This document shows, in pieces, positions 393 to 45,869 of a stretch of DNA of 47,220 nucleotides. A program made the translations under genes and the position numbers. Position 1 is the stretch's first letter. Every line of letters begins with the position of its first letter. The notes below the pieces were generated by a model, which was not told the origin of the DNA, ran no database searches, and saw nothing but the letters and a program-made list of their open reading frames with translations. Source of the stretch: Candidatus Arcanibacter lacustris (lineage in GTDB: Bacteria; Pseudomonadota; Alphaproteobacteria; Rickettsiales; Arcanibacteraceae); NCBI GenBank assembly GCA_000970895.1, contig JYHA01000087.1, positions 1 through 47,220 on the forward strand, given 5' to 3'.

Positions 393-1214
393 ATGCTAGA
401 TCCCTTAGATGAAGAAGTATCTGTTCGTCATCAAGCGAGGCTTTTAGGGGTATGTAGGTCAAAAATATACTATAAACCAATTATTAGTGATGATAATTTT
501 ATAGCTAATGAGATTTTAGAAATTTATGGTAATTCTGATTGTAGATATGGATATAGAAAAATTCATGCATCATTACTAGTTAAGGGATTGATTATTAATA
601 AGAAAAAAATACAAAGAATGATGAAAAATCTAGGATTGCAGGGCTTGTATCCAAAGAAAAAGATTAATACTACCATTAAAAATGAGCTACATAAAATTTA
701 CCCATATTTACTAAAAAATGTAAATATTACAAGGAGTAATCAAGTATGGTGTAGTGATATTACTTATATTTGGGTAGAAAATAAATTTATGTATTTTATA
801 GCTATTATTGATTTACATAGTAGATATATTGTATCATATGGGTTAAGCTATAGTTTAGAGGCTGATTTTTATGTGGAAATACTTAAAAATTCTCTAGTGA
901 CGGCCCGTCCAGAAATATTTAATACTGATCAGGGGAGTCAATTTACAAGCAATGGATTTATTAATATATTAATTGCTAATAAGATTGCAATCAGTATGGA
1001 TCATCAGGGAAGATGCTTTGATAATATTCATGTGGAGCGCTTGTGGCGTACTGTAAAGCAGGAGGCTGTTTATTATTACAAACCAGAAACTGTAGCAGAA
1101 TTAGAAAAAGTACTTAATGAATTTGTAATATGGTACAATAATGAAAGGATTCATCAAGCTTTATTGTACAAAACACCAAGGGAAGTTTATTATGGCATGA
1201 AAAAAAGTGATTAA
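393..1214 (+). CDS. IS3-family transposase OrfB (rve/DDE integrase core), probably expressed as an OrfAB fusion
   Basis: DDE contexts WCSDITYI, FNTDQGSQFTS and VERLWRTVKQE. This frame is already open from 354, which is -1 relative to OrfA. Confidence 0.9.
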   Translation: MLDPLDEEVSVRHQARLLGVCRSKIYYKPIISDDNFIANEILEIYGNSDCRYGYRKIHASLLVKGLIINKKKIQRMMKNLGLQGLYPKKKINTTIKNELHKIYPYLLKNVNITRSNQVWCSDITYIWVENKFMYFIAIIDLHSRYIVSYGLSYSLEADFYVEILKNSLVTARPEIFNTDQGSQFTSNGFINILIANKIAISMDHQGRCFDNIHVERLWRTVKQEAVYYYKPETVAELEKVLNEFVIWYNNERIHQALLYKTPREVYYGMKKSD

Positions 1215-1678: not shown

Positions 1679-3298
1679 TTAAACTGTATCCTTTATAGTC
1701 TGGAAGAAGGTTTTAACCTCGCTATCGAGCGATGTAGATAATTCAGATATGATTTGCACTGCATCGTTTAATTGCTCTGAAGCGCCTTCTACATCGCCAA
1801 AAGAATCGCCCACATCTCTAACATCAGAAGATACTTCTTTGACCGAGGTAGCAAAGCTATCCATGGTTTTAGACATTTCTTTAGTAGCCATCTCTTGTTC
1901 TTTAATTGCGTTGGCAATTTGATTAAATACATCTTTAATGAGATTTACTGAAGTTTTAACAGGATTTAAATAAGTTACCACATCCATACTGGCTTTATCA
2001 ATGGCCCTAACCTGCACGTAAATATTTTTAGTAGATTCTTCTGTCTGGCAAGCAAGATCCTTAATTTCGGTTGCTACAACTGCAAAGCCCTTGCCGTATT
2101 CTCCAGCTCTTTCAGCCTCAATTGCTGCATTTAAGGATAGTAATTTCACATGTTTAGAAATATTATCGATTGCTTCGATAATGGCGGTTATTTTTTTGGT
2201 TTCATTGATTAATTCTTGGATAATTTTATCAATAGCTTCAGTTTTTTTAACCGCATCAACAAAACTCTCGTTACTACTCATCATATTACGATTGATATCT
2301 TGAATTGATGCTGACATCTGAACTATAGCTGATGCTACCATTTGCGTTTCTTGGTTCATTTTATCGGCATTATCAACCGTTCTAACCGATTTTTCAGAAG
2401 AAACCATCACGGTGTTTTTCATACTATCTGAAATACTATCAAGACCCATACAAGAACTACTTAAAGCTTCGAAGGATCTAACAATTTTTTTCTGGAAACC
2501 ACCAATAATTTTATCAATTATCTCTTGTCTTTGTAATTTTTCCTTAGCATCTGCTTCTTTTTCTAATTCTATGCTCTTAATGGCATTGTCCTTAAAGATA
2601 TTTAGTGCATAAGCCATTCTGCCAATTTCATCATCCCTAGTTAAAAAAGGTATTTCAATGTTGGTAATTCCAGATGCTAATTCATTCATAGCATGAGTAA
2701 TTCTTATAATAGGTTTGGTTACGATAATTCTAAGTAATGTACCAAGCAGTATAATCATGAAGCTTTGCATGACTATTACCACCCATAATAAATTACTTGC
2801 GCTTTCGCTAACTTTTCCTAAAACATTCTCCTTGCTCCAAGATATCTCTAAATAACCCACCACATTATTATCTGCTTTGATTTCTTTGATTAATACATAA
2901 TGATCTGGTAAGTCAAATTTTGTAGTATTTTGATCGATGTTTTTAAAATTATTCCATAAGGAGGCTAAATCTGCTTTAGGAAAATTACTAGATTCATAGC
3001 TACTTAATTGATTGTTAGCAGTATCATATATTGTTATAGCGCTGACTATTGAATTTGGATCTTCAACCAAATCCTTATAAGATAATTTAATATTATCAGA
3101 ATTTTTTGTTCTTACTCCGTCAGATAGTTGTTTATCTAGCATAGAAGTTATAGATGTGACATTGGTTGTAAAATCCAATAGCATATCTTTTTTCTGCTGG
3201 TGGATTTGAAATGCACTCAAAATAAAAAAGCCAGTTGCTAAGCTTATTATCAATGCCGTGATAATTTTTGCATTTAAATATTTAATTTTAAATTTCAT
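1679..3298 (-). CDS. Methyl-accepting chemotaxis protein (two TM segments, HAMP, MA signalling domain)
   Basis: The ORF track extends to 3337, but MKFKIKYL at 3298 follows TAAGG and starts the first TM segment. HAMP-like [23 protein letters not shown]...[13 protein letters not shown]. Conserved signalling hairpin [32 protein letters not shown]. The stop directly abuts the pilin ATG (TAAATG). Confidence 0.9.
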
Positions 3299-3374
3299 TG
3301 CCTTATTCGCTTTAACCAAGTTAAATAGACTCAACAAAGATTATTATAAATAGTTTGTATTAAATTTTTATTAA

Positions 3375-6020: not shown

Positions 6021-6575
6021 TTATTTTTTCTTAAAAGCAGATGGAATCTGTAATAAAGCAAAAATCATAGTCAATGGTATCATGCCAAAAACCTTGAACT
6101 TGATCCAGAAATCTTCAGATAAATTGCGCCAAATTAATTCATTTAAGATGGCTAGTGCTAGAAAAAACACCGCCCATCTAAGGGATATTTTTAGCCATTC
6201 TTTATCGCTTAATTCTATCATTTCGCCATAAATATATTTGGCCAAGCCTTTTTTAAATGCCGCCCCTCCAAAAAGAGCTATAGAAAAAATTAAGTTTATC
6301 ACTGTAACTTTCATCTTAATGAAGCTAGCATCTTTGGTGTAGATTGTAATGCCTCCAAAGATGACTAGCAATAAGCATGATACTGTTGAAACAGTGACTA
6401 TCTTCTTTTCATGCTTATATTTAATGCAAGTGGCAATGATAGTGGTGATGACTAAGCTTCCGGTTGCCCAGATCATGCCCTTATATTTATATAGGGCAAA
6501 AAATAGTAAAATTGGTATAATTTCTGTCAGTAATTTTGTAGTTGATTGTTTATCCGCCTGAGGTTGGTTTGTCAC
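6021..6575 (-). CDS. yciB: Inner-membrane septation protein A family (YciB/IspZ-like)
   Basis: About 180 aa with five hydrophobic segments. The start LLTEIIPILLFFALYKY... and the overall layout fit YciB. Recognised by pattern only. Confidence 0.6.
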   Translation of the reverse strand: MTNQPQADKQSTTKLLTEIIPILLFFALYKYKGMIWATGSLVITTIIATCIKYKHEKKIVTVSTVSCLLLVIFGGITIYTKDASFIKMKVTVINLIFSIALFGGAAFKKGLAKYIYGEMIELSDKEWLKISLRWAVFFLALAILNELIWRNLSEDFWIKFKVFGMIPLTMIFALLQIPSAFKKK

Positions 6576-7098
6576 TCTTTGTCTCGTCCTTTATTTCATT
6601 ATTTTCATCTATTGTTTCTTCGGAAGTTTCTAAATATTCTTCACCTAATTCATCTGAAGTTTCATCAAGATTTTCTAAAGATTCATCACTCTCTCCTTCT
6701 GGAGTTTCTAAGAGTTCATCGGTTAATTCTTCAGAATCTTCTAAAGATTCATCACTCAATTCATCCAATGTTTCTTCAGGAGCATCTGTATCTTCTTCTC
6801 CTAATTCTTCTTCTGCATTTTCATCATTTTCCTCTGAAGCTTCTTCAGATTCTTGTTGTTGTGCTGCTCCTAAAGCATATACACATAATTCTTCAAAAGA
6901 AACATTATTTTTTTCAGATAAATCTTTTAATTTTGCTACGCTATCCATCACATTGGCAGGAATTGTTCCACCCCTCTCGCGAGATAACCAATCTGCTTGA
7001 AAATGCAAAGGATGATGCTTTGGCTCTGGATCTCCAATATAAATTGTAAATGGTGATTGTACGCCATTAAAATCACAAGGTATTGAAAATTTTTTCAT
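6550..7098 (-). CDS. DUF2610-like conserved alphaproteobacterial protein with a long acidic repetitive tail
   Basis: The N-terminal 80 aa (MKKFSIPCDFNGVQSPFTIYIGDPEPKHHPLHFQADWLSRERGGTIPANVMDSVAKLKDLSEKNNVSFEELCVYALG) match the DUF2610 pattern as I recall it. The remaining roughly 100 aa are almost entirely E/D/S/L/T. Confidence 0.6.
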   Translation of the reverse strand: MKKFSIPCDFNGVQSPFTIYIGDPEPKHHPLHFQADWLSRERGGTIPANVMDSVAKLKDLSEKNNVSFEELCVYALGAAQQQESEEASEENDENAEEELGEEDTDAPEETLDELSDESLEDSEELTDELLETPEGESDESLENLDETSDELGEEYLETSEETIDENNEIKDETKSDKPTSGG

Positions 7099-7171
7099 AT
7101 AGTCCTCCTGGTCATAATTATATACCCAAAGTCAATCGTGAAGGGTGTAGCTTTCTTATCCTTAAACTCGG

Positions 7172-7426
7172 GGTGGCGCAATTCTAAAAAACAGCCTAAT
7201 AAAATAAAGCGAATATTCTGCGCCGCACGTCATCCTGGAGCGATATTTATCTTTGAAAACGATAAATTGAAGCGATAGGATCCATCTTTAATCTTTTAAC
7301 ACATTGGTTATGCTAGCAATTTTATGGATCCTATCGGTCGATTTTTCTTTTAGAAAAATCTCCCTCCAGGATGACGTGCCACGCGGATGATTAACTTAAA
7401 CGTTCATTATTTAGAAGCGTGCTGCC
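7172..7426. repeat. Composite nested palindromic repeat (family 1, GTCATCCTGGAG type)
   Basis: Core arms CACGTCATCCTGGAG (7226-7240) and CTCCAGGATGACGTG (7364-7378). Inner palindrome CGATAGGATCCAT (7273-7285) and ATGGATCCTATCG (7324-7336). Imperfect outer arms GGTGGCGCAATTCTAA (7172-7187) and TTAGAAGCGTGCTGCC (7411-7426). Positions 7228-7254 are identical to 35748-35774. Confidence 0.85.
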
Positions 7427-7463
7427 CTGTCCAAATTCAAATATATACTATATATTAACATAA

Positions 7464-8093
7464 TTAATAAACTACTAATTTCAAAGAAATCACTAGCAGA
7501 TTATGCGCATTATCTAAAACCTTCTCTTCTATTGTCTCTATATCAACCCCACTTCTTGCTAAATAATCGCTAATAGCTGCTATTCTATCAAGATTTATCC
7601 TTAGCTCAGAATTATTAGATGTTAAGTCGCTTGTTCCTAACATTATTTGAGTGATGATTTTGGTATTTTGTACTTTATGGGACAATAATGTTGCAAGATC
7701 TGACAGAAAAAATTGCTGTAACTCATTAATATCAGAAGATTTATTTGTAAAAAAAGAGCTTGTATCGGTTTTCATTGCTATTGTTAAGCCGTCATTAATT
7801 TCTAATATTTCAAAATTAGTTGGTATGATGTCCAGCATTTTTGTTTTATAAAATAAAGTGATGCCATTGATTGATTGTTGTTTGTTATCCAAAATAATAT
7901 TTTTTGGACGATGACTATTTCCAAAGCTTTGTTTTATGCTTGATATAACTTGAGCTGGATTGCTAGTTTTGTTGGGCTGTACATAATTTAGTAATATAAA
8001 AAATATCAATAAGAAAAAATATAATGATATTTGTAAGGATGAGTAATCCGTCCGGCTTGCTGACTCAATTTCAATGATTTTTTCTTCATGCAT
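7464..8093 (-). CDS. Single-pass membrane protein with MotB/OmpA-like features (divergent)
   Basis: An Asp sits just before the only TM segment (RTDYSSLQISLYFFLLIFFILL), similar to MotB ADFMTAMMAFF. The C-terminal NSELRINLDRIAAISDYLARSGVDIETI resembles the OmpA-like N-x-x-LS-x-x-RA-x-x-V-x-x-YL motif. The call is weak and pattern-based. Confidence 0.35.
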   Translation of the reverse strand: MHEEKIIEIESASRTDYSSLQISLYFFLLIFFILLNYVQPNKTSNPAQVISSIKQSFGNSHRPKNIILDNKQQSINGITLFYKTKMLDIIPTNFEILEINDGLTIAMKTDTSSFFTNKSSDINELQQFFLSDLATLLSHKVQNTKIITQIMLGTSDLTSNNSELRINLDRIAAISDYLARSGVDIETIEEKVLDNAHNLLVISLKLVVY

Positions 8094-8117
8094 GGCAAAT
8101 AGTAAATTTTACATTTA

Positions 8118-8765
8118 CTATTGGTTGAATAAATCATCTATTTGACTTTGCGATGGAGCATCAATTTGTGGTCCTGTAAGCAAATCAGAATCTTTTATTA
8201 CATTAGTATGAACATTTTTTGAATCAATAGGGGCTGCTGCTACTTTTGGTTTGTTCTTAGTAAATGATTTGATTAAAACAGAAATAGTGCCATCAATTTC
8301 TTCAAGTACTTTCAAAGTTTTAGCAATTCTTTGACCTGTTACGTCTTGGAAATTACATGCTTCAAATATCTCTGTCACTTTATCCACTATGATTTGAGAA
8401 GATTCTTTATCAGCCATTTTCAAAGCTGTGTTTTGAATCACTTCAGCAGCATCTAAAATAATATTTGTTGATTGTTCTGTTGCGCGAGTTACTGCATTTA
8501 ATTCTAGCGCAGCACCTGGTATAAAGGTATCGCCAATAGAATTAGGATCTAATTCTACAACTTCTTGTTTTACTTTTTTAATCTGTTCAGCAATTTTCTC
8601 AATTTCATTAAATATTAAAATATCACTTTGAGAAGATATGTGACCTTTGATAGTATCCATAAATCCAGCTATTAATGAGTCAACATCGCTAAGCTCGATT
8701 TTACCATTATTGCTAATTCTTATTTCTTCTAACCTGTCGAATAAAATCTTACCTAAATCATTCAT
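8118..8765 (-). CDS. cheZ: CheY-P phosphatase CheZ
   Basis: Active-site motif ACNFQDVTGQRI (CheZ D-x-x-x-Q in FQDLTGQ). The C-terminal acidic/amphipathic peptide SQSQIDDLFNQ resembles the CheY-binding tail. GGAGAG RBS upstream. Confidence 0.75.
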   Translation of the reverse strand: MNDLGKILFDRLEEIRISNNGKIELSDVDSLIAGFMDTIKGHISSQSDILIFNEIEKIAEQIKKVKQEVVELDPNSIGDTFIPGAALELNAVTRATEQSTNIILDAAEVIQNTALKMADKESSQIIVDKVTEIFEACNFQDVTGQRIAKTLKVLEEIDGTISVLIKSFTKNKPKVAAAPIDSKNVHTNVIKDSDLLTGPQIDAPSQSQIDDLFNQ

Positions 8766-8786
8766 CGCTTCTCTCCAATATTATTA

Positions 8787-9173
8787 TTAAAATGCTCCGA
8801 GCACTGATACAAGCTTTGTTTTTAAAGTCTCTGCATTAAATGGTTTTACAATGTAGTTATTTACACCAGCGGCTTTAGCAGCGACTACATTTTCTGTTTT
8901 ACTCTCAGCGGTTATCAAAATAAAAGGTAAGTTTTTAAAATCAGGATCTGCTCTAACGCTTTTTAATAAATCATACCCTGTCATTTGATCCATATTCCAA
9001 TCAGAAATAATTAAATCAAACTTTTTCTCTTTTAATTTGGTTAAGGCTATCGCTCCACTCGTAGCCTCTTCAACATTATTAAAACCAAGTTGCGAAAGAA
9101 GATTTTTAATAATTCTCAACATAGTTTTATAATCATCAACGATCAGTATGTTCATGTTCATGTCAACGGCCAT
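8787..9173 (-). CDS. cheY: Chemotaxis response regulator CheY (single receiver domain)
   Basis: ILIVDDYKTM (acidic pocket), LIISDWNMDQMTG (phospho-Asp with the CheY-typical W-N-M-P/D context), ITAESK and YIVKPF. GGAG RBS 9 nt upstream. Confidence 0.9.
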   Translation of the reverse strand: MAVDMNMNILIVDDYKTMLRIIKNLLSQLGFNNVEEATSGAIALTKLKEKKFDLIISDWNMDQMTGYDLLKSVRADPDFKNLPFILITAESKTENVVAAKAAGVNNYIVKPFNAETLKTKLVSVLGAF

Positions 9174-9307
9174 AATTCAAGCTCCGAAATAATATAATAT
9201 TGTCAATGTTTAAGCTTTCTAAAAACTAATCACTATTCTAAAATCATAATTCAATATTGTTAATTTTTAATTAAGATACAAAGACATCGCAAGTGATAAT
9301 AAGAAAT

Positions 9308-9778
9308 TTAATTCTTATTGATAACTTCATCGCCCCATAACTCAACCATATCCTTCATTTCTTGTTCTATTTGCACTAGTTTGTGCGCTGACTTGATTTT
9401 AAAAAGGTGTGAAGTAATTTTAGGTAATAACAATAGCATCATACAACCAATAGAAGTTGTTCCATAGATTGAAATCCATACAAAGGGATTAATAATAAAG
9501 GTTTGTGACATCTCATTTATACCTCCGCTTCTCCATAAGGTGAATATATAAGGTGATACTCCCATTAAATTGAAAGCGCAGATAGTACTAGATGCAGATT
9601 TATTTAGTCTTTTATCTATAGCGAACGAAGCAAGGCTTGGTAAGATAGCAATGATAAAAAAGGTAAATGCATAACGTGATATAAGTAAAATAGCGAAACT
9701 AATAATAACTATTAGTAGCCTGATACTATACATCAAAACTTTCGCGCCACTTTTTTTATTAGGTATATTATTAGCCAT
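9308..9778 (-). CDS. Hypothetical integral membrane protein (about 4 TM segments)
   Basis: Long ORF with four hydrophobic stretches and a charged C-terminal tail. It starts 24 nt downstream of the kinase-fold gene. No family recognised. Confidence 0.5.
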   Translation of the reverse strand: MANNIPNKKSGAKVLMYSIRLLIVIISFAILLISRYAFTFFIIAILPSLASFAIDKRLNKSASSTICAFNLMGVSPYIFTLWRSGGINEMSQTFIINPFVWISIYGTTSIGCMMLLLLPKITSHLFKIKSAHKLVQIEQEMKDMVELWGDEVINKN

Positions 9779-9802
9779 TATATATCAACATATTACAAGG
9801 TG

Positions 9803-11872
9803 TTACTTAGTAAGCAGGTAAATAAGCATAATTGAATAAAATAAATATGATACTATCACGCATATTTTTAAACCATACCGATAACCTAGCTCGTCCATTT
9901 TAGCGCCGTCAAACAACTGTTGTTTAGTAAAAAATAACTTTCTATATAGTTTTTTTGCACGATCAAATTCATTTAAATCTTTTTGAAATATACTAGGGTC
10001 GGTAACTACAGATAATAAATTAGTCAAGGTGCTTTTTTGTGACAAATCTGTGATTCTTTCAATTAATTCGGCTCTGGTAGATTTATTACGAATTTGCAGT
10101 ATAACTGGGTCTAAATTAACAATACAAGCCTTGGCCAAATGTTTTAAGACCTTAGTCCCAGTAGTTTTTTGAGCTACAGCTAAAATAGCTAATGATATTA
10201 ATTCTTTCCTTCTTGCTAGCAATGGAAATCTAGCGAGGCTTGGCAATGTCATCTCTTTGTTTATATGTAATTTAGCCAATATAAAAGCAGAGATATGGCG
10301 ATCCATAATTTTATTATTGCCTAAAGATGCCTGAACATCTAGCTCTTGTAAAATCTGATTCACTGTGAAAACCATTTTATCCTTAAAAATTTCGCTCTGA
10401 CATGGAGCATTAGGATTTAATTCATATAAGCATCGTTCCATCCCAAATCCCGCAACGTCTTTATCAAAAAATTCCCTAAGCCTATCCATGATATCATAAA
10501 GCTTATTGTTTAAATTTATCCTTCTATCAAGTGATTTTATTACAAAAAATCTCCAGTAACATCCTTTAAGGATAGTTTTAGCATTCTCTAAATATTCTTT
10601 TTTATTTCTAGCAAAGCCATAAAGAATAAGCAAAGGCATGCTTTCTATAGACATTGAAAAATCCTTAACTCTAAGAGGGCCTGTCGGGTCTAGAGTTGCT
10701 AAATATCTGACTAATAATTCCTCTTGTCCTACTAGTACGGAATTGGTGGATTCGTAGCGACCTATATTGCTGATACGTTCTAATTTTTCAGCAACATCGG
10801 CGTTTCCAATAGCGCGCTCAATCCATCCAACGATCTTATCTTCTAAAATAAATTTTTTAGCTAAGGACCAACTTTTTTGCAAGCCATGAGCAAGATAATG
10901 GCAAGTATAATAATCTTTATCATTAAAGGACAATGATCTTGTTGCTTCGTTAAACATACGAACCACATTCAAAGCTGTAATTTGATTATTATACCACTCA
11001 TAAATCTGTTTGGATCTCCATCGATCTGTCACGATATCATTAAGCAATCCTTTTAAAAGCACTTTTGCTTCATTGGATATTTTCTTAGAGCTGGTTAGAG
11101 CAGTATAAGACCCTTGCTCCATTTTTGATTGTAATAACATTTCTAAGCTATATGATGCTGAGTTATAGTTGCCACTAAGCATCATATAGCAAACTACGCC
11201 TAGGGCGTAGTAATCTGCAACAACATTAGTTGTTCCTCTTGTGATTGGTAGGCAGTCTATAATTTCAAGAGGACAATATACTGTTTTTTGTGAAAAGAAT
11301 GGAGCATCAGAAAAGCATTCTCCAACCATTACAATGTTGTTGGTTGGGTTAATAAATATATTTTCTATATTTATTCTACCATGAGCAGCTCCAATTGCTT
11401 CAAAATTTTGTAAGATCTTAACTACAGGCAATAATATATTTTTTTTAAAAAAACTTAAAGAACAAGGGCCATTAATATCTATATATTCCTTTAGGTTGAT
11501 ACCAGTAGGGTATTCCATGATAGCTACATAATGCTCTTTATTATCAAGAGAAAAATTTGTTACTTCAGCTTCTATTGGTATTACTAAGCGCTCAATAGCA
11601 TTGGTTTTAAAATAATCAATCAAACTTATTCTTGGATTGATATGAGAATCAAACACTAATCCATAGAGCAGCCTATCATCTATTTCGCTTAAATTGATGC
11701 AATTATATGCTTTGGCAAAAGCGCCCCCAAAGGATGTTAGAGGAGCGTCTGGATCTATTTTGTAACGACCAGCTATAAGGTCAATATCATTGTTAATGAT
11801 AATATCTACTATGCTCTCGTGAGTAATAGCATTTTCAACTTTACTAGGATCTGCTGAATCAATACTGGTCAT
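9803..11872 (-). CDS. C-terminally membrane-anchored protein with an N-terminal Ser/Thr-kinase-like fold lacking catalytic residues (pseudokinase)
   Basis: Hanks-type subdomains are recognisable: GRYKIDPDAPLTSFGGAFAKAY (I), HYVAIMEYPTGINLKEYI (V), AHGRINIENIFI in place of HRDLKPENI (VIb), VMVGECFS in place of DFG (VII), VADYYALGVVCYMMLSG (IX) and DRWRS (XI). Terminal TM segment GLKICVIVSYLFYSIMLIYLL. Confidence 0.6.
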   Translation of the reverse strand: MTSIDSADPSKVENAITHESIVDIIINNDIDLIAGRYKIDPDAPLTSFGGAFAKAYNCINLSEIDDRLLYGLVFDSHINPRISLIDYFKTNAIERLVIPIEAEVTNFSLDNKEHYVAIMEYPTGINLKEYIDINGPCSLSFFKKNILLPVVKILQNFEAIGAAHGRINIENIFINPTNNIVMVGECFSDAPFFSQKTVYCPLEIIDCLPITRGTTNVVADYYALGVVCYMMLSGNYNSASYSLEMLLQSKMEQGSYTALTSSKKISNEAKVLLKGLLNDIVTDRWRSKQIYEWYNNQITALNVVRMFNEATRSLSFNDKDYYTCHYLAHGLQKSWSLAKKFILEDKIVGWIERAIGNADVAEKLERISNIGRYESTNSVLVGQEELLVRYLATLDPTGPLRVKDFSMSIESMPLLILYGFARNKKEYLENAKTILKGCYWRFFVIKSLDRRINLNNKLYDIMDRLREFFDKDVAGFGMERCLYELNPNAPCQSEIFKDKMVFTVNQILQELDVQASLGNNKIMDRHISAFILAKLHINKEMTLPSLARFPLLARRKELISLAILAVAQKTTGTKVLKHLAKACIVNLDPVILQIRNKSTRAELIERITDLSQKSTLTNLLSVVTDPSIFQKDLNEFDRAKKLYRKLFFTKQQLFDGAKMDELGYRYGLKICVIVSYLFYSIMLIYLLTK

Positions 11873-11925
11873 ATTTATAATATACCATCAAAAACCAATT
11901 ACAAACTATCTATGGCGATGGTAAA

Positions 11926-11958
11926 GCAAATATATTAATATATTATTAATATATTTGC
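11926..11958. promoter_or_regulatory. 33-bp perfect palindrome in a divergent promoter region (candidate operator)
   Basis: GCAAATATATTAATA-TAT-TATTAATATATTTGC has 15-bp arms with no mismatch. It lies 54 nt upstream of the ATG at 11872 and 113 nt upstream of bamD. Confidence 0.4.
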
Positions 11959-12070
11959 ATGGTGTTTTTTGAAATATTTTTATAAGGAGCTATGCTTTGG
12001 GCGATATTTATATTCTATTTTAATTAGTTTTGTTATATAAAGGAGATTATATACTAATTAATTATAAAAT

Positions 12071-12832
12071 ATGGACTATATGAAAAACTTACTTTCAAAA
12101 CTACTACTATGTTTGGCGATTTTAATTCTTGTCTCTTGTGCTAATAAAAAAGAGGAAGAAGAGCTACCAACCGATCCAAACATATTATTCAATCAAGCAA
12201 GTAACGATTTGAACAAGGGTAGGTATGACTTAGCGGCAGAAAGTTTTGCTAAAATTTATGTGGAACATCCTTATTCCGAATTAGCAACTAAGGCTAAGTT
12301 AATGGAAGCTTATAGTTGGTACGAAAAGCAAGATTTTGATATGACACTTGCTATATTAGATGAGTTTGTAAAGCTTCACCCTGCTTATAAAGATATAGAT
12401 TATGCTTATTATTTAAGGGCGATGTCTTATTACTATCAGATTTCTGATAGTAAGCATGATCAAGAACAAACCTTATTATCTAAAAATGCTATTGGTGAGG
12501 TGATTGCAAGATTTCCAAATAGTAACTATGCAAGAGAGTTGAAATTTAAACTAGACTTAGTAAATGACCATTTAGCTGGCAATGAAATGGAAATTGCTCG
12601 CTTCTATCAAGCTAGAAATGATTTTATAGCTGCAATTAATAGATATGATAAGGTGATAAAAGAATATCAAACCACTAACCATGTAAAAGAAGCATTAGCA
12701 AGATTAGTAGAGTGTTATTTGGCATTGGGAATAGTTGATGAAGCAACTAAATATGCAAGCATTCTAGGCGCTAACTATCCTGCAAGCAGCTGGTATCAAT
12801 ATAGCTATGACTTGCTAAATAAAAACAAATAA
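12071..12832 (+). CDS. bamD: Outer membrane protein assembly factor BamD (ComL/YfiO)
   Basis: Lipoprotein signal LAILILVSC followed by TPR-like repeats (YDLAAESFAKIYVEHPYSELATKAKLMEAYSWY...). Sits immediately upstream of recN, as is common in Alphaproteobacteria. Confidence 0.8.
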   Translation: MDYMKNLLSKLLLCLAILILVSCANKKEEEELPTDPNILFNQASNDLNKGRYDLAAESFAKIYVEHPYSELATKAKLMEAYSWYEKQDFDMTLAILDEFVKLHPAYKDIDYAYYLRAMSYYYQISDSKHDQEQTLLSKNAIGEVIARFPNSNYARELKFKLDLVNDHLAGNEMEIARFYQARNDFIAAINRYDKVIKEYQTTNHVKEALARLVECYLALGIVDEATKYASILGANYPASSWYQYSYDLLNKNK

Positions 12833-14482: not shown

Positions 14483-15052
14483 GTGAAAAAAATTGCTTTA
14501 ACTGGCTCCATTGCCATGGGAAAAACTTTTATTGCAAATATATTCAAGCAATTTTCTGTCGCTGTTTATGATTCAGATTTGGCAGTTAAGGAAATATTTG
14601 AACAACAACCAGAATTAATCGCAAAATTATTTCCAGAATGTTATGTAGATGGTAAAATCGATAAAAATATCTTGAGCCAAATAATCTTTAACGATCCTCA
14701 GAAACGCAAAAAATTAGAATCTATCCTTCATCCTTTAGTTGCTAAAAAACGTGAAATATTTATCAGAAGAGAAAAATACAAAAGAACTAAAATATTAGTC
14801 TGCGATATAGCATTATTATTTGAAAAAAACTATCAAAGATATTTTGACCAGGTGGTGGTTGCTTCTGCTCCGAAATTTATGCAAAATAAAAGAGCTATGG
14901 CTAGAAAATTTATGACTCAAGATAGGTTATCATCAATATTAAAATTACAAATGCCTGATCATAAAAAAAGAATCAAAGCAGATAAGGTTGTTTATACAGG
15001 TGGTAATAGAGGATCAGTATATCGCCAAATAAAATCCTTGCTATATAGCTAG
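14483..15052 (+). CDS. coaE: Dephospho-CoA kinase
   Basis: GTG start abutting the recN stop. P-loop LTGSIAMGKT, then VYDSDLAVKEI. Length and layout fit CoaE. Confidence 0.75.
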   Translation: MKKIALTGSIAMGKTFIANIFKQFSVAVYDSDLAVKEIFEQQPELIAKLFPECYVDGKIDKNILSQIIFNDPQKRKKLESILHPLVAKKREIFIRREKYKRTKILVCDIALLFEKNYQRYFDQVVVASAPKFMQNKRAMARKFMTQDRLSSILKLQMPDHKKRIKADKVVYTGGNRGSVYRQIKSLLYS

Positions 15053-16177
15053 AGCCCTTACTAATCCCAATAATCTGGACTCATTTGCCCAATTAAGATC
15101 ATTGAAGATGGAGGTGAGTAACTCATCTGATTGTAGATGATCATATAATCTTGAAATAGAATGTATCACCTTTACTTCGTCAGATTTGTTGTGGCAAGCA
15201 AGAGCAAGTCTTATAGTTACGAATTTTAAAGAAATAATTGAGATTTTATTATATAAGCTAGCACCAAGACCTGCAAATGGAAATAAATTAGAGGCGATTT
15301 GAGCATATAAATATTTTCTTAAAGCCCCTTCTCCAAGAGAATCATTCATTAACTTCCCATATAATTCAATGCTATTTGGACCATATTGGATAGTTAGATT
15401 TTTTTGGTCAATGGTAATTTCAAGAGATTCTGCAATTGTTGCTAATACTTCATTTAAAATATTATTATTTAATTTAGATGAGTGAATAACTAGCATTAGA
15501 GCATTGATAATATTAAAAGGATCATTAGCTTCTATTTTTGCTGGAATGATACGAGTAGATGCAGTTTCAAGTAAGAATGGAACTGCATCTATCCAAGATG
15601 ATTTGGCAATTGAATCTAAAGATTTAGACACTGTGATTATTTCTGATAATAAACTAACGCTATCTTTATCCTGACTTTGTAAAATATGTTCTATAAAATA
15701 ATTATGAATTAAAAGGGCTGCATCTTCTGTTAATTCTGCCGGTAGGTAATCTTTACAAACAATAGGAATGCGTGCTATATCTGTATCTTCTAGTTCATAA
15801 CCTGCTTCATTTTCAAGCAATATACGAGTTACTTCAGGGCAGGAAAGAGTAGCGCTCATGATATTTTGATTGCCTAGTTTTCTAACAATTCGAGGGTAAA
15901 AATAACAAGCATCTCCTAGAAAATTTTCACCATATTTAGCATGTACGCCACATCTACCGGATTCAAGCTTAACGCAGTAATTATTTGCATCATGCTTCAT
16001 TACATACTGATTGTCTTTTTTAGTTATGGAATCTGATAATAGGGGATCTTTTAAGTAATTATTAGCGCGAGTTACATCGAGTTGCATCTGCCAATTTTGA
16101 CAACAATTATTTGAGCATTCAGCTCCAATGCATTTAAATGAGGTTACTATCTTACTTTGTTTTATTTTGTAAGTCAT
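15041..16177 (-). CDS. fliB: Flagellin lysine-N-methylase FliB-like (Cys-rich)
   Basis: VTSFKCIGAECSNNCCQNWQMQLD, CVKLESGRCGVHAKYGENFLGDACYFYPR and SATLSCPEVTRILL parallel the Salmonella FliB cysteine motifs as I recall them. It is the last gene of the flagellar block. Confidence 0.65.
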   Translation of the reverse strand: MTYKIKQSKIVTSFKCIGAECSNNCCQNWQMQLDVTRANNYLKDPLLSDSITKKDNQYVMKHDANNYCVKLESGRCGVHAKYGENFLGDACYFYPRIVRKLGNQNIMSATLSCPEVTRILLENEAGYELEDTDIARIPIVCKDYLPAELTEDAALLIHNYFIEHILQSQDKDSVSLLSEIITVSKSLDSIAKSSWIDAVPFLLETASTRIIPAKIEANDPFNIINALMLVIHSSKLNNNILNEVLATIAESLEITIDQKNLTIQYGPNSIELYGKLMNDSLGEGALRKYLYAQIASNLFPFAGLGASLYNKISIISLKFVTIRLALACHNKSDEVKVIHSISRLYDHLQSDELLTSIFNDLNWANESRLLGLVRALAI

Positions 16178-16185
16178 TGCTTGAT

Positions 16186-16701
16186 TTAAGTTATTATATG
16201 TTGAGTTTTATATATATCATTATAAAACACATGTTGAACTCCCGTAAAATTAAGACTATCAATTATCAGGGGAGCTTTCATATTTACTGATATTTGAGAA
16301 AATTTATTACCTTCTTCGTCGATTTTTTGGTGCACTGAGGTGATCAATAATATTGATACATTTTCCTTTTCTATATTTAGATAATTAATTGCCTCCAGTA
16401 AATCCACCTCATTAATATAATGAGATGCCTCTTCAATGGAGCCTAGGGGCAAAATAATAAAGGACAGATTATCATCTTCTGTCGATTGCAATACTTTAAA
16501 ATTACCGTAAGTATTTTGAGGAAAATTAGCCAAACAAAAACTCATCTTATCAACCATGCCAAGTAATCCATTATTGAATAAGATGGTTTTGCTTAAATCA
16601 ATTTTGATCAAACCAAATCTACTCATAATTTGTTTTTTATCATTTTCTTCGCAAGCTATGATACGATCAATAACTATGTCAGCAGAGATTATATTTCGCA
16701 T
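16186..16701 (-). CDS. fliW: Flagellar assembly factor FliW
   Basis: ILFNNGLLGMVDKMSF, FKVLQSTEDDNLSFIILP and NMKAPLIIDSLNFTGVQHVF...Y match the FliW pattern (F-x-x-G-L-x-G, LQS-x-x-D, NL-x-APLIIN). AGGAG RBS upstream. Confidence 0.75.
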   Translation of the reverse strand: MRNIISADIVIDRIIACEENDKKQIMSRFGLIKIDLSKTILFNNGLLGMVDKMSFCLANFPQNTYGNFKVLQSTEDDNLSFIILPLGSIEEASHYINEVDLLEAINYLNIEKENVSILLITSVHQKIDEEGNKFSQISVNMKAPLIIDSLNFTGVQHVFYNDIYKTQHIIT

Positions 16702-16712
16702 AAATTCTCCTT

Positions 16713-17633
16713 TTATAAATCGATGTAATTTACCAGAGTCAGTTGACTCATCATGTTTAGTAGTTTAAAAGACGCCATTAAAATATTAGTGTTACTAGAG
16801 GCCTTAATCATAGCGGTTGGAAAATCAGTATCATTAGCCTCGCTTATAATTTGGGTGATAGTTAATTTCTGATTTTGAAAACTAGTATTAGCAGAATTAA
16901 TGGTAACTGTATTATTTGCCATATTAGATCTAAGAGATGTCAAATCTGTCACGATCTTATTAATAGTATCCATAGATTCTGAAAGTGCTTTAGTGTCATT
17001 TTTTTTGTCAGCAGTAATTAAGTTATTGGCACAGGCTATTAAATCCTGAAAAACTTGATTATCGGCAGTAACGCCGTAATTAATATTTATTGTATCAGTT
17101 ACTTGAGCATTGAGAATTGTATCATTGCCTTGATAATAATTGCTAGTAGCAGTTCCATTTAATACATTACTTGTTGTGCTAAGATGTACAACTGGTTCAA
17201 TATTTGTTGCTGTTCCTGAGAATAAATATTTACCTTCAAGATTTATATTCAAAGAATTTTCAATGGTAGGTAAGTAAGTATTTCTAATAAGATTTGTAAG
17301 TTGGATGGAGTCACCAGCAGTACTAAGTCTTGTTGTAAGATCTTTTTGCATGCCTTGGGCCATAGCAAGAACATTATCCATAGATAAAATCATGGTGTTT
17401 AGTCTATTTAACACATTGTGATTGTTATTTGTGTAATTGGTTATTTGTTGTAAATTTTCTTTTAATGCAATATATCCATCTACTGCTCCATTATTATTAT
17501 ATAATCCTAGATAAGTATCGGCTATCTGTCCAGATGAAATTTGCTGCTGTTGTACGGCTAAGCTTGATTGAGCAGCTAATATATTATTAATACTATTTTG
17601 ATAATTAGCATAAGTACTGATTTGGTCTACCAT
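16713..17633 (-). CDS. flgL: Flagellar hook-associated protein 3 (FlgL)
   Basis: Flagellin-like N and C termini (…INNILAAQSSLAVQQQQISSGQ; …DTDFPTAMIKASSNTNILMASFKLLNMMSQLTLVNYI). About 300 aa and immediately downstream of flgK. Confidence 0.85.
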   Translation of the reverse strand: MVDQISTYANYQNSINNILAAQSSLAVQQQQISSGQIADTYLGLYNNNGAVDGYIALKENLQQITNYTNNNHNVLNRLNTMILSMDNVLAMAQGMQKDLTTRLSTAGDSIQLTNLIRNTYLPTIENSLNINLEGKYLFSGTATNIEPVVHLSTTSNVLNGTATSNYYQGNDTILNAQVTDTININYGVTADNQVFQDLIACANNLITADKKNDTKALSESMDTINKIVTDLTSLRSNMANNTVTINSANTSFQNQKLTITQIISEANDTDFPTAMIKASSNTNILMASFKLLNMMSQLTLVNYIDL

Positions 17634-17648
17634 AATAACTCTCCTTTT

Positions 17649-20510
17649 CTATTTAATAGATGAAAGTAACGTATCATATAATCCCATAATGAGGGACATC
17701 ATTTTTGATGATGCTTTATAAGCATTCATATATTGCATACTACTTGCTATTTCTTGATCTAAATTAACTCCGCCAACCGCGTCCATCATAGTGCCTAGAG
17801 TATTATATACAGAATTTTGCTCCGTTAAATAGTCACTTGCATTTTGAGTTTGTACTGTGTTGTAACTAAGTATCAATGAAAAATACCCAAGTACGGTATT
17901 AGTCATTTTTGGCAAATAACCAGCCTGATTAAAATTAACTGCCTGACTTCTTAAAGAAGCAAAAGAATTTATGGATTCATTTGATCCAATAGCAATTCCA
18001 TATGTCCATGGTTGTACATTAACTGTAACTTGATGGTTAGTGCCGCCTGCTAAATAACCATTTGGCGTTATAGAGTAACTTTCATTATTTACACTCACTT
18101 GGGCTGCAACAAAATTACCTGAAATAGCATAATTATTCCCTATTATACCAAGATTTCCATAAGTTATGGTTAATAAATCTATCGCATCTGAAGTATAAGC
18201 AGCTTTGCTTACTGTGCCAGAAGTATAAGCATTAGATGCATTTAATGCAGTTGCAATATTATCTAATGTAATGCCTAAGTTAGCACCAACAGTAATTTCG
18301 GAATTACTAACGGCACTTGCAACGAAACTAAAAACCTGACTATCAATAGTAATAGTATCTCCAATAGATGGGTTGGCATTAAATTGCATAGTTGCTTTTG
18401 CAGCAGTTAAGCCTTGCGAAACTGTTTGGGGAGCAGATGGAGATCGAACTATCTTACCAGTTGATATTAAGATTGGGTTAGCTAATATATCGCTACGTAG
18501 CTGAAGATTAACCGCAGAGCCAGTAACCGCAGCATTAGTAGTTCCAGAAATGGTGTTGGAATTACGTACAAAAAAATCATTTAACTCATAATATGTTGCA
18601 AATCCTTTGTTAGTACCAGTAACTGCATTAACTGAATAAGGAGAACCAGCTCTTAGCCCCTTATCTTTGCTATCTATATCATCCATTATGATGCCATATT
18701 TGCCATTAACAGTGCTGATTTGCAAGAATCCACTATTCCCAGGCGAAACTGGCTTTCCTTTTGCATCTACTATTTGGGCTGTTGCTATTCCATTGATAGC
18801 AGCAGCTACAGTAAATGTTGCATCGCCACTTGCGGTTATTGGTTGATATCTGGTATTTTGAACTGCAGTGGATCCTGGGTTGTCATTTACTTGATATTGT
18901 ATAGTGCCAGATGAAATATTACCATTTGTATCAGTATTCTGTACTGTTACTGAAATAGTATAAGGTCCTCCACTTCCTCCTGCAAAACTAACAGTAAATG
19001 GAGCTCCTGTTCTTGATCTTGATCCTGCAGTGCTTCCTGCTGCTGCAGGAAGTGATGAAGTTAGTCCAGTACAGCCACCTGAGACTGTAACTGCTGTAAT
19101 TTGTACGCTTGAGCTAACTTGGGAATCATTTTGAATATCTAGATCAAAACTCATAATTCCACCAGGCTCTGTAGATAAATTAGAGGCAGCTGCTAATTTA
19201 ACATCATATAAATTGCCAATAGAGGCTTTATTTTGTATGAAGTCATTATGAAAATACTGATTTATTTCATTGACGATTGTTTGAGTAGTCATTTCACCAG
19301 CTAATCCACCGCTTGCAATTTTATCAAAATTAAGTAGCAAAGGAGGGAGTGGAGTCTTATCGGGTCTTAAGATTGGATTGCCATTATTATCTAGAATTGC
19401 TATTCTTGATGTTCCTGTAAAATCTCTACCATCTGTATTAGTAACTGGTCTAGTGCCAGTAAGGCTGGTTGCAGGAGGTATTCCTCCTCCTGAATTATGA
19501 ATAGCATTAAATTGTTCGGTCAAACTAGTTGCTAGCACGTCTAATTCATCAATAATTTGTGGAATTTTAACATCGCGTAATTGTTGAAGTGCTGCTAATT
19601 TTCCAGATAAGATATTTGTAGTAACATTTGATGAGGTGCCGCCTGATTCGCTAACGCCTCCTGAAATATAAACAACGGATAAATCACTAATACTACCATC
19701 ATTATTTAGTCTGGATACTGTAACTGGGCCAAATCTTGTATTGTTAATAATGCCTTGAAGTGAGCTTGATTGAGCATACTGCATGATATATTTACTTTCA
19801 TTAAGTAGCTCTTGTCCTGCTGCTGCACTAATTTGCACTGTACCATTTTGAGCAATATAGACATTAATATCCAATTCTTTTGCTAGTGAATTAAGCAACA
19901 TATCTCTAGTTTCTAATAGATTACTTGTGTCATTGCCAAGATTAAAGCCTATAGCTATTGAATCATTATTATACGATAATTGCCCTAGTAAGCTATTAAT
20001 ATTATTAACACTAGTTCCTATTTGTTGATCTGCATCATAGCGTAATTGATGTAAATTTTTTGCTAGATAATTGATATTTTCAGCGATAACATTAGCCTGA
20101 TTCACTACATTAAGTTTTAAGGAAGAAAGTTGTGGATCTAAAGATAGAGAATCTAGCGATGTAAATAATCCAGTGATATTATTTGCCAATGAATTCGTGC
20201 TATTCGGATCGCCAAATAAATTTTGGATCCTGCTGTAAAATAAGCTAAGAGTGTCGGCATTAGCAACATTTGATTGTTGTTTTCTGGCATCAGCAATAAG
20301 ACTTTCATTGACGCTTCTATAAATAGAGGATACTTCCACACCGATAACGGTGTCGTTTGATGATATGCTGGAAAGTTCGGCTATTCTTCTAGAGTAATTT
20401 GGGTTATTAACATTCGAGATATTGTTTGCAACAACATTTAATACTTGTTGATTAGCATTTAAGGCCGTTAATGAAGAGTTTAATGCGCTATCTAAGCTAT
20501 ATGTTACCAT
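17649..20510 (-). CDS. flgK: Flagellar hook-associated protein 1 (FlgK), enlarged form
   Basis: N-terminal rod/hook motif ALNANQQVLNVVANNISNVNNPNYSR and FlgK-type C terminus VNLDQEIASSMQYMNAYKASSKMMSLIMGLYDTLL. It is 953 aa, with a long G/S/T/N-rich centre. Confidence 0.9.
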   Translation of the reverse strand: MVTYSLDSALNSSLTALNANQQVLNVVANNISNVNNPNYSRRIAELSSISSNDTVIGVEVSSIYRSVNESLIADARKQQSNVANADTLSLFYSRIQNLFGDPNSTNSLANNITGLFTSLDSLSLDPQLSSLKLNVVNQANVIAENINYLAKNLHQLRYDADQQIGTSVNNINSLLGQLSYNNDSIAIGFNLGNDTSNLLETRDMLLNSLAKELDINVYIAQNGTVQISAAAGQELLNESKYIMQYAQSSSLQGIINNTRFGPVTVSRLNNDGSISDLSVVYISGGVSESGGTSSNVTTNILSGKLAALQQLRDVKIPQIIDELDVLATSLTEQFNAIHNSGGGIPPATSLTGTRPVTNTDGRDFTGTSRIAILDNNGNPILRPDKTPLPPLLLNFDKIASGGLAGEMTTQTIVNEINQYFHNDFIQNKASIGNLYDVKLAAASNLSTEPGGIMSFDLDIQNDSQVSSSVQITAVTVSGGCTGLTSSLPAAAGSTAGSRSRTGAPFTVSFAGGSGGPYTISVTVQNTDTNGNISSGTIQYQVNDNPGSTAVQNTRYQPITASGDATFTVAAAINGIATAQIVDAKGKPVSPGNSGFLQISTVNGKYGIIMDDIDSKDKGLRAGSPYSVNAVTGTNKGFATYYELNDFFVRNSNTISGTTNAAVTGSAVNLQLRSDILANPILISTGKIVRSPSAPQTVSQGLTAAKATMQFNANPSIGDTITIDSQVFSFVASAVSNSEITVGANLGITLDNIATALNASNAYTSGTVSKAAYTSDAIDLLTITYGNLGIIGNNYAISGNFVAAQVSVNNESYSITPNGYLAGGTNHQVTVNVQPWTYGIAIGSNESINSFASLRSQAVNFNQAGYLPKMTNTVLGYFSLILSYNTVQTQNASDYLTEQNSVYNTLGTMMDAVGGVNLDQEIASSMQYMNAYKASSKMMSLIMGLYDTLLSSIK

Positions 20511-20525
20511 GATTATTACCCCTGA

Positions 20526-20990
20526 TTAAATATAGTTTTGCAAACTAAATGCGGGTAATTCAGAAGTTGATTTAAATCTATTGCCATAACTTCCCCCACT
20601 ATTATATCCTGATTGTTTCTTTGATTCTTTTATAAAGGCATCTTTCAGACAATCTAAAATTTTATGATTAACTTCGATAGATACAGATAATCTACTTAGA
20701 TTTTCTTGCATTTGAATTTTTAATTCATCTTGTAGTATTTTAGATTGTTCTATTTTTTTTCTGTCGAAGCTCTTACTAAGCTCAGGATTTTGTTTTAAAG
20801 ATTTTTGGCAATTGCTCAAAAAATCAATCAAGTCACTTTTTTGAGGTTGTAATGTTTCTAATTCGCTGATCTTTAGCTCAGATAAGTAATTATTTTCTTG
20901 ACGCAAAAGAGATATTAAAACATTAGTTGATTCAATAAAATCATCTAAATTCATTGAATCATTTTGATCAATAGTATTTGTTTCACTCAT
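20526..20990 (-). CDS. FlgN-like flagellar export chaperone (tentative)
   Basis: Small all-helical acidic protein (LISLLRQENNYLSELKISELETLQPQKSDLIDFL...) directly upstream of flgK, which is the usual FlgN position. No strong motif. Confidence 0.45.
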   Translation of the reverse strand: MSETNTIDQNDSMNLDDFIESTNVLISLLRQENNYLSELKISELETLQPQKSDLIDFLSNCQKSLKQNPELSKSFDRKKIEQSKILQDELKIQMQENLSRLSVSIEVNHKILDCLKDAFIKESKKQSGYNSGGSYGNRFKSTSELPAFSLQNYI

Positions 20991-21354
20991 TTCTTACCAC
21001 TCCCTCTAAAGGTATGTTATTAGCTTTGGTTAATTGCTTTTCAACCATTTTTGCTATTCCAAATGATCCAGATTTACTTATCTCATCACACATAGCATTG
21101 ATCATCATGGTTTTATAAATATCGTTAGCACTGCTTTCCTTATTAACCAATGGATCTATTTGTACATTTGCATAAATCATGCCAACATACTTAGATAGAA
21201 TAAAAGACTCCATTTCTATTGATGCTTTCTTGATTGATACGAGGTCTTTAAACGATTGATTTGAATTGCTTTGTATGTTTTGAATTTTATTATTTTCTTT
21301 GTGCAAAGCTACAGTATTTATCAAATTATTACTTACCGTGTTAAAGTCTGCCAT
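20983..21354 (-). CDS. Rod-binding protein (FlgJ N-terminal domain only / CheL-like)
   Basis: KKASIEMESFILSKYVGMIY and DIYKTMMINAMCDEISKSGSFGIAKMVEKQL fit the Rod-binding domain. No muramidase domain is present. The ATG at 21354 is preferred over the TTG at 21360. Confidence 0.65.
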   Translation of the reverse strand: MADFNTVSNNLINTVALHKENNKIQNIQSNSNQSFKDLVSIKKASIEMESFILSKYVGMIYANVQIDPLVNKESSANDIYKTMMINAMCDEISKSGSFGIAKMVEKQLTKANNIPLEGVVRNE

Positions 21355-21446
21355 GATCAACTTTGTCCTAATTTAAAAATTAACTAAGCAATAATTGCCT
21401 AGTAAATATGTTAACTCTTGCTGTATCAGTCCCTTTTTCTTGAATA

Positions 21447-21643
21447 CTTCCCAGGTTGTCATCCTTCGGCTAGAAGCTCTTTGGCCTTTAGGCCTTAGAG
21501 TTTCTTGACCGGAGGACCCATCAAAAAAATCAATTTAATTTTGATTTAGTTAATTTAAAAATGGGTCCTCCGGTCAAGGGCGAACTAATCTCACCTCTGG
21601 TTCGATAAGTTCTTCTAGCCGAAGGATGACAGCGTGGGGAAGC
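21447..21643. repeat. Multi-nested palindromic element inside the flagellar block
   Basis: Perfect 20-bp arms TGTCATCCTTCGGCTAGAAG (21457-21476) and CTTCTAGCCGAAGGATGACA (21612-21631). Inner 18-bp arms CTTGACCGGAGGACCCAT (21504-21521) and ATGGGTCCTCCGGTCAAG (21561-21578). Also contains GGCCTTTAGGCC (21483-21494) and an AT palindrome at the centre. Confidence 0.85.
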
Positions 21644-21702
21644 CACCTCTTTCTTATCTTGTAATTAGCACGCTTCAGAATCGCAAACTACAATACCCCT
21701 CC

Positions 21703-22800: not shown

Positions 22801-22861
22801 AATTTTTATCTATCCTTATATTTTACTATTAAACATCAGTTAGAGTTAAAAAATAGTAAAT

Positions 22862-23779: not shown

Positions 23780-23785
23780 ATCAAA

Positions 23786-45012: not shown

Positions 45013-45219
45013 AATTTGAATGTTTCAAGAATGTTTTATCTTACAACTGTAATAATACTATTTTCCTGTAATTACAATAAAAACTAAAAAAACATTTTGT
45101 AGCTTCTCTCATTTGGTGCCCCAGTAACTTATTATTGTATGTTTATCAAATAGTTGATAGTATGAATAATAAGTTAATTTGAATTAACTACAATATAAAA
45201 AATGAGGGAAGGGGCGTAT

Positions 45220-45840: not shown

Positions 45841-45869
45841 AGCAAATCATAATAACTAAAAATGAATTT

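Follow-up and report, generated by a model that had tools for sequence, protein, structure and literature searches.

A gene pair on the minus strand of contig JYHA01000087.1 (assembly GCA_000970895.1) of Candidatus Arcanibacter lacustris encodes a membrane-anchored pseudokinase and a small membrane protein that accompanies it in Rhodospirillales-like and Rickettsiales-like lineages. The stretch of DNA analysed, 47,220 nucleotides (nt) long and called the window below, places the two genes directly upstream of cheY and cheZ, and a preliminary description had suggested that they might form an input or localisation module for CheY. Our results argue for a different reading: the pair is probably an ancient, self-contained alphaproteobacterial module in which a membrane-tethered kinase fold would serve as a non-catalytic scaffold or conformational switch. 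The first gene (9803..11872, minus strand, stop codon included) was taken from the list of open reading frames (ORFs) and encodes a tail-anchored protein of 689 amino acids (aa). The second (9308..9778, minus strand), supported by the ORF list and by BLASTP and tblastn homology, follows after 24 nt (9779..9802) and encodes a 156-aa partner with several hydrophobic segments. A spacer of 134 nt (9174..9307), itself outside the module, marks the module boundary on the cheY side. These coordinates, strands, and both spacer lengths agree with the preliminary description.

The 689-aa protein has a real protein-kinase fold of the Hanks type, as had been proposed. The pseudokinase domain spans residues ~30-295 (10988..11785, minus strand) and is delimited by Pfam and PDB matches, hhalign, the AlphaFold2 (AF2) model, Foldseek, and family conservation. 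Its landmarks are an N-lobe with β1-β5 and αC, the sequence H164-G-R-I-N-I-E-N171 in the catalytic loop, a conserved activation segment, D220-Y-Y-A-L-G, and R284-W285. Pfam Pkinase (PF00069) matches residues 110-291 with E=7.9e-6 and 25.9 bits, under the gathering threshold of 31.7 bits, and 61 of 67 family members match the same model at E<=0.01. Among PDB sequences, phmmer matched StkP and Stk1, and a profile built from eight homologues matched titin kinase, Stk1, MSK1, and calcium-dependent protein kinases at ~1e-10. An hhalign comparison of the 67-sequence family profile gave probabilities of 97.6% against PKA and 98.2% against PknB. The AF2 model of the complete protein (predicted local distance difference test score, pLDDT, 81.2; predicted template modelling score, pTM, 0.77) shows the canonical order β1-β3, αC, β4-β5, αD, αE. 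Foldseek matches of this model in the PDB are Ser/Thr kinases only (E ~5e-9, target template modelling score 0.65-0.77, ~290 columns). Sequence and structure comparisons of 9803..11872 agree on the kinase fold. A match to the NCBIfam 'MADS6 defence kinase' (E=1.6e-4, 20 bits versus a cut-off of 460 bits) was dismissed because it reflects the kinase fold only.

Residue conservation, counted over 239 aligned family members, indicates that this fold has lost key elements of catalysis. In all alignments (titin kinase, Stk1, PKA, and PknB) HGRINIEN falls on HRDLKPEN, with R166 at the position of the catalytic Asp and N168 at that of the Lys, exactly as first read; the catalytic-loop Asn is kept as N171, which is found in 190/239 members. 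At the HRD-Asp position the eight commonest residues, Ala, Arg, Ser, Asn, Cys, Gly, Lys, and Thr, account for 221/239 sequences. The absence of a VAIK-type Lys was also confirmed: the β3-Lys position is a gap or V73 in the window protein (hhalign against PKA) and Val, Ile, or Leu in 228/239 members, in an N-lobe register that combines one hhalign alignment with the AF2 strand order. The glycine-loop-like FGGAFAKAY (G49-G50) noted earlier does occupy the structural position of the glycine loop, but its glycines are peculiar to the window lineage and not a family trait, the family consensus being D-S-P-S. A lysine in β2, K54, was tried as a WNK-like rescue lysine and rejected; it is Lys or Arg in only 147/239 members and lies one residue off the WNK lysine position.

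The DFG motif is less clear. Three alignments place it at M182-V183-G184, G184-E185-C186, or E185-C186-F187, and in the last of these registers (alignment to PknB) E185 falls on the DFG Asp; this position is Glu or Asp in 232/239 members. The GEC-for-DFG reading of the preliminary description is thus one of three registers, and its statement that every catalytic position is substituted holds for the β3 Lys and the HRD Asp but not for the DFG Asp, whose loss is not established because the registers disagree and an acidic residue sits on the Asp in one of them. Two metal-ligand positions may therefore survive in the pocket. Under the operational definition, at least one member of the Lys/Asp/Asp triad is missing in a pseudokinase (10.1101/2025.01.12.632604); as aligned, the 689-aa protein qualifies, with the Lys and the HRD Asp missing throughout the 239 sequences. 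By the same alignment, the losses are a property of the family and not of one decayed copy. Loss of the Gly-rich loop, the β3 Lys, and the catalytic Asp across the family excludes conventional protein-kinase activity.

Much of the remaining kinase core is strongly conserved. H164 (97%), D220 (100%), R284 (95%), and W285 (97%) are kept in the family, and the activation segment follows the pattern G-[ED]-C-x-S-x-P-x-G-Y-S-Q-P-x-x-Y-E-P-x-E-R, with Q195 at 95% and E200 at 93%. R81, C186, Q195, E200, and R/K212 are almost invariant. The window copy and its close relatives deviate at four residues that are 86-95% conserved (G192F, E200C, G296N, and G614S); E200, a Cys in the window copy, falls within the otherwise rigid activation segment.

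The pseudokinase domain is followed by an all-helical domain of ~360 residues (residues ~296-655; 9908..10987, minus strand), defined by the AF2 model and by family conservation, in good agreement with the ~380 unrecognised helical residues and C-terminal transmembrane anchor described at the outset. It carries two small hairpins and, modelled alone, reaches a pLDDT of 84.9. The most conserved motifs of the whole protein lie here: W350, LDPxGPxR (394-401), GFGxERxLYELNPxxPCQS (475-493), and DRHIxAF (524-530), which include the invariant C491, D524, and H526. Foldseek with this domain alone found nothing of similar fold in the PDB (best E=0.5, template modelling score <=0.2), a profile search of PDB sequences gave no match, and no Pfam family covers the domain in any of the 67 members. 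The protein ends in a transmembrane anchor at residues ~660-686 (9815..9895, minus strand) with 3 residues after it, recognised from hydropathy (2.24 over 19 residues) and from an AF2 helix at 656-688; there is no signal peptide. A comparable C-terminal hydrophobic segment is present in 222/239 members, with 3 residues (median) after it, which makes the tail anchor a trait of the whole family.

The conserved residues around the former active site and in the helical domain raise the question of whether the protein is a repurposed enzyme. In such a case the kinase fold, with or without the C-terminal motifs, would bind a nucleotide or ligand in a non-canonical manner, and either catalyse a reaction other than phosphorylation (compare AMPylation by SelO and glutamylation by SidJ) or operate as a ligand switch. 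Both canonical metal ligands would be retained if N171 and the acidic residue at or beside the DFG Asp fulfil these roles, and the near-invariance of R81, C186, Q195, E200, and R/K212 and the invariance of C491, D524, and H526 are in line with a functional site. The resemblance of HGRINIEN to HGVMNTDN of SelO (PMC12599244, Table 1) provides a lead only. However, the elements that bind adenine and phosphate, i.e. the Gly-rich loop and the β3 Lys, are lost family-wide, K54 is too variable to replace the latter, and none of the 67 members matches SelO or another non-kinase family in Pfam. SelO and SidJ, moreover, keep the β3 Lys and the DFG Asp (PMC12599244), unlike the family described here. We regard an enzymatic or ligand-switch function as the main alternative, possible if unlikely.

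The partner contains four hydrophobic segments, two strong and two weaker, before an amphipathic C-terminal helix that ends in W148-G149. Its size, its spacing from the pseudokinase gene, and the presence of multiple transmembrane segments correspond to the preliminary description, and the count of four segments given there rests on hydropathy, including the two weaker ones. P47, D55, N70, and W148-G149 are invariant in partner alignments. No family in Pfam or NCBIfam matches the partner, and a profile search of PDB sequences gave no match. Homology extends far nonetheless: BLASTP links the partner to the gene downstream of a pseudokinase of only 24% identity with E=1e-15. In tblastn searches, with a relaxed search adding one truncated copy, the partner lies directly downstream of the pseudokinase gene in 73 of the 83 loci with readable downstream sequence. 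The two genes are separated by -8 to +32 nt in 62/71 related loci, and stop and start codons often overlap. Family members measure ~670-750 aa, a range that includes the 689-aa protein. The window pair displays the full set of family motifs, i.e. H-[GR]-x-I-[RN]-x-x-N, G-[ED]-C, GFGxERxLYELNPxxPCQS, DRHIxAF, the C-terminal transmembrane segment, and the partner residues P47, D55, N70, and W148-G149. Three Midichloriaceae-type loci, which belong to a set of ten that lack the partner (see below), have in its stead a 129-aa ORF that is unrelated to it, contains two hydrophobic segments, and overlaps the pseudokinase stop codon by 4 nt at its start (L026 9977..10366; L028 10016..10405; L029 9977..10366).

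The family is large. An exhaustive profile search recovered at least 1198 clusters at 50% identity (E<=1e-30), and the best 150 clusters are ~620-770 aa long with end-to-end matches; a word-indexed search returned eight relatives only. In species-representative genomes 198 loci were confirmed, mostly in Alphaproteobacteria of the Rhodospirillales and Rickettsiales/Midichloriaceae types, with members in the isolates Thalassospira lucentensis and Dongia soli and also in Magnetovibrio. Public annotation labels the pseudokinase 'protein kinase family protein' or 'hypothetical protein', and literature searches yielded no description of the pseudokinase or partner family, only a general atlas and a review of bacterial pseudokinases.

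Gene neighbourhoods were counted with tblastn over 85 related loci. The partner is matched in 72 of these, purA (upstream) in 69, hisZ in 55, rpoH (downstream and convergent) in 46, and rluD (convergent) in 43. The usual order is hisZ-purA-pseudokinase-partner, with rpoH and rluD convergent to it. All-against-all clustering of ORFs from 84 loci uncovered no further recurrent neighbour, returning only purA, hisZ, rpoH, rluD, and shadow ORFs. We take purA/hisZ and rpoH/rluD as the ancestral neighbours of the pair. In the closest relative (L003, 78% identity), dnaK-dnaJ lies upstream of the pair, and a methyltransferase gene and a major facilitator superfamily gene lie downstream. The flanks of the pair differ between the window, this relative, and the purA/rpoH loci; pseudokinase and partner move as a unit. 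Between the window and the 78% relative, the ratio of non-synonymous to synonymous substitution rates (dN/dS) is 0.15 for both genes, a clear sign of purifying selection.

Three contigs with related loci carry further genes of note. In one Rickettsiales-type genome a REC-PP2C (RsbU-like) response regulator is encoded after the pair (L025 10543..11769). A second Rickettsiales-type genome has such a regulator after the pair together with STAS-like and anti-sigma-kinase-like proteins (L042 10608..12790), an arrangement that resembles a partner-switching module. On the contig of a relative with 31% identity lies a gene for a 593-aa protein with pentapeptide repeats and an OspF/SpvC phosphothreonine-lyase domain (L004 1766..3547); this effector-type domain suggests a host-associated organism.

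In the window, cheY (8787..9173) and cheZ (8118..8765), both outside the module, come next on the strand of the pair. Their domain matches mark them as genuine genes: the former matches Response_reg at 7e-30 and the NCBIfam CheY model at 3e-43, and the latter matches CheZ (PF04344) with 42.6 bits, above the cut-off, and has an FQDVTGQ motif in its translation. The next gene, a 209-aa ORF (7464..8093, minus strand) with a single transmembrane segment, has OmpA-type matches only (E=0.01-0.13). The earlier series of cheY, cheZ, and a MotB-like gene is therefore correct for its first two members, and the MotB-like label of the third goes back only to these marginal OmpA-type matches. Three independent assemblies show the same succession of pseudokinase, partner, cheY, cheZ, and 209-aa gene, which is thus not an assembly artefact; a copy of the 689-aa protein that is 100% identical is found in three other assemblies.

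This arrangement, with no terminator-like site in the 134-nt spacer, together with the flagellar genes and a methyl-accepting chemotaxis protein (MCP) encoded in the same window, is what could favour a chemotactic role, in which the pair acts as an input or localisation module for CheY/CheZ, e.g. as a scaffold in the membrane on which CheY docks or which substitutes for CheA/CheW. Conserved linkage is lacking, however. A CheZ homologue is present in 0/85 related loci, and no CheY gene is adjacent to the pair in any related locus outside the window species. The only response-regulator genes near the pair are the two in L025 and L042, which encode REC-PP2C proteins of 408-413 aa (RsbU-type) beside STAS and anti-sigma-type genes, and the other CheY-like matches are PleD/DivK-type receivers several kilobases off. 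No che genes occur on the 13-kb contig of the 78% relative, and the conserved neighbours of the pair are purA, hisZ, rpoH, and rluD instead. As the preliminary description had stated, neither CheA nor CheW is matched among window ORFs of >=110 aa. The MCP (552 aa, HAMP and MCPsignal domains; 1679..3337, minus strand), which had not featured in that description, nevertheless suggests that an ordinary chemotaxis pathway is encoded elsewhere in the genome.

Conserved linkage between the pair and che genes, on whose absence in relatives the preliminary description had already agreed to abandon its proposal, was not found in the related loci. For want of it, the idea of a CheY/CheZ module is largely refuted, and we rate it as very improbable. 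Because the adjacency is confined to one lineage, the pair is probably unrelated to chemotaxis; judged from the comparison of loci, its position beside cheY-cheZ is an accident of genome rearrangement in the host-associated, low-GC (guanine plus cytosine) lineage of the window, not evidence of a new chemotaxis architecture. None of the trio of cheY, cheZ, and the 209-aa gene was found in the 85 pseudokinase-related loci. In the sister assembly L086, the region that matches the MCP differs slightly in structure: there, a HAMP-containing gene comes after a Peripla_BP_6 gene.

A further proposal, raised in the preliminary description, was that the 689-aa protein interacts with a host, which would make it a secreted or surface effector of an intracellular bacterium. 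The window organism does look host-associated: an ankyrin-repeat protein (35849..36568, minus strand), an integrase (rve) of the insertion sequence (IS) type (393..1214, plus strand), a GC content of ~33%, and scrambled synteny suggest a Rickettsiales- or Holosporales-like lifestyle, and one related contig carries the OspF/SpvC-family gene. Against this, the family is broadly distributed in free-living Rhodospirillales (Thalassospira, Dongia, Magnetovibrio), where it resides in a housekeeping neighbourhood, the protein combines the absence of a signal peptide with a tail-anchor topology, and purifying selection is strong. An effector function is hence highly unlikely.

We favour a model in which the product of the first gene is cytoplasmic and held at the inner membrane by its C-terminal tail anchor. 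The anchor helix would pack within the membrane against the partner, which is predicted to have approximately four helices, to place its invariant Asp and Asn within the membrane or at its surface, and to end in a C-terminal helix on the cytoplasmic side. The pseudokinase and helical domains, also on the cytoplasmic side, would serve as a non-catalytic scaffold or conformational switch, much as the membrane pseudokinase EssB/YukC serves to organise a membrane complex. Four points weigh against this model. The case for a physical complex with the partner and for a scaffold or switch role comes from gene order, which makes both conjectural. The conservation of the polar residues N171 and E/D185 seems to exceed what a pure scaffold requires and is compatible with binding of a metal or nucleotide. 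Ten loci of the Rickettsiales/Midichloriaceae type keep the anchored pseudokinase without a partner within 8 kb, so the partner either is not obligatory there or is encoded elsewhere. Finally, co-transcription with cheY is possible in this organism because the 134-nt spacer contains no terminator-like site in a promoter/terminator scan of the AT-rich region 7000..12200; the spacer has one promoter-like hexamer pair (9263..9235), and the scan as a whole is not above the shuffled background (36 found versus 29.9±5.6 expected).

A more speculative and rather doubtful extension combines several of these features. The degraded pocket with its two metal-ligand positions could combine with the helical domain and its invariant Cys, His, and Asp to create a ligand-binding or catalytic centre of a new kind, to which the tail anchor would couple the four-helix partner with its invariant membrane Asp and Asn. 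C186, C491, D524, and H526 are candidates for a Cys/His metal site or a catalytic triad. If true, the pair would be a signalling or enzymatic device of a new type that spans the membrane, as opposed to a passive scaffold.

Among known systems, EssB/YukC, a scaffolding membrane pseudokinase of type VIIb secretion in Firmicutes (PMC12599244), offers the closest mechanistic parallel. Both proteins have a cytoplasmic N-terminal pseudokinase domain with degraded catalytic motifs and glycine loop, and one transmembrane helix; EssB/YukC works with membrane partners as a non-catalytic scaffold, and the scaffold role suggested here is drawn by analogy with it. The differences are substantial. EssB has an extracellular domain after the transmembrane helix, whereas the helix here lies at the extreme C-terminus with ~3 residues after it; the activation loop of EssB is attenuated, whereas the segment here is long and highly conserved; and a cytoplasmic helical domain of 360 residues is inserted here. 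EssB is encoded in a type VII secretion cluster, whereas the present pair has no linked secretion genes, its recurrent neighbours being purA, hisZ, rpoH, and rluD only.

The recent atlas and review of bacterial Ser/Thr kinases distinguish seven pseudokinase families (ActPs1-3, GLW, CP1, DYD, and DLHK), none of which matches the family described here; differences in taxon, motifs, or fused domains set it apart. PF00069 homologues were the starting material of the atlas, and part of the family may have escaped it since the window protein scores below the Pfam cut-off. GLW (O'Boyle et al.) is nearest in taxon and architecture, being proteobacterial with a C-terminal transmembrane segment, but has G-L-W in place of HRD and a poly-Leu β3 (LLLL/W; PMC12599244), whereas the present family has H-[GR]-x-I-[RN]-P-[DE]-N and L-[YF]-A-L-[VI]-C. 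The pseudokinase domain of ActPs3 (MviN/MurJ-linked, Mycobacterium) is likewise membrane-associated, fails to bind ATP, and has a regulatory or scaffolding role; ActPs3 differs in being actinobacterial, in its fusion to a polytopic flippase, and in the deletion of its activation loop.

SelO/YdiU shares a kinase fold without the HRD Asp, yet it is soluble and keeps the β3 Lys and the Asp of DFG/DYG. The closest solved sequences, by profile and fold matches to the PDB, are titin kinase and Stk1/PknB/StkP, which share with the family the HRD His, the catalytic-loop Asn, the APE Glu, the DxWSxG Asp, and the Arg of subdomain XI. These kinases differ in being active, with Lys and Asp intact, and lack the helical domain, the tail anchor, and the partner. 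Membrane-anchored bacterial pseudokinases are themselves a known kind; what is new here is their combination with an undescribed C-terminal domain and a dedicated partner.

The window carries further genes. Upstream of the pseudokinase gene lie bamD, recN, and coaE in divergent orientation, and the 209-aa ORF is followed on the minus strand by a DUF2610 gene and ispA. The DUF2610 protein (6550..7098, minus strand) has a very acidic, low-complexity C-terminal tail rich in Glu, Asp, and Ser; long ORFs on the opposite strand (6542..7000 and 6546..7049) are probably shadows of this tail repeat. A flagellar cluster (15041..24637, minus strand) encodes a 378-aa protein without assignment, FliW, an FlgL/flagellin-like protein of 306 aa, FlgK (953 aa), an FlgN-like protein, an FlgJ-like rod-binding protein, FlgI, MotB, and MotA, and FliP is encoded separately (39808..40539, plus strand). 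Given these genes, the organism is probably motile even though other features suggest host association. In a stretch of 24% GC (45001..46532, plus strand), a 212-aa ORF without a family match precedes a 220-aa ORF with a HATPase_c domain only; the two could represent a histidine kinase that is split or truncated.

Hardly any experimental work exists on bacterial pseudokinases, and the family described here offers a good entry point. It is large, has a stable position beside purA and rpoH, is under purifying selection, comes with a dedicated partner, and has a C-terminal domain without a solved or curated relative. Its presence in culturable hosts such as Thalassospira and Dongia makes it experimentally tractable.

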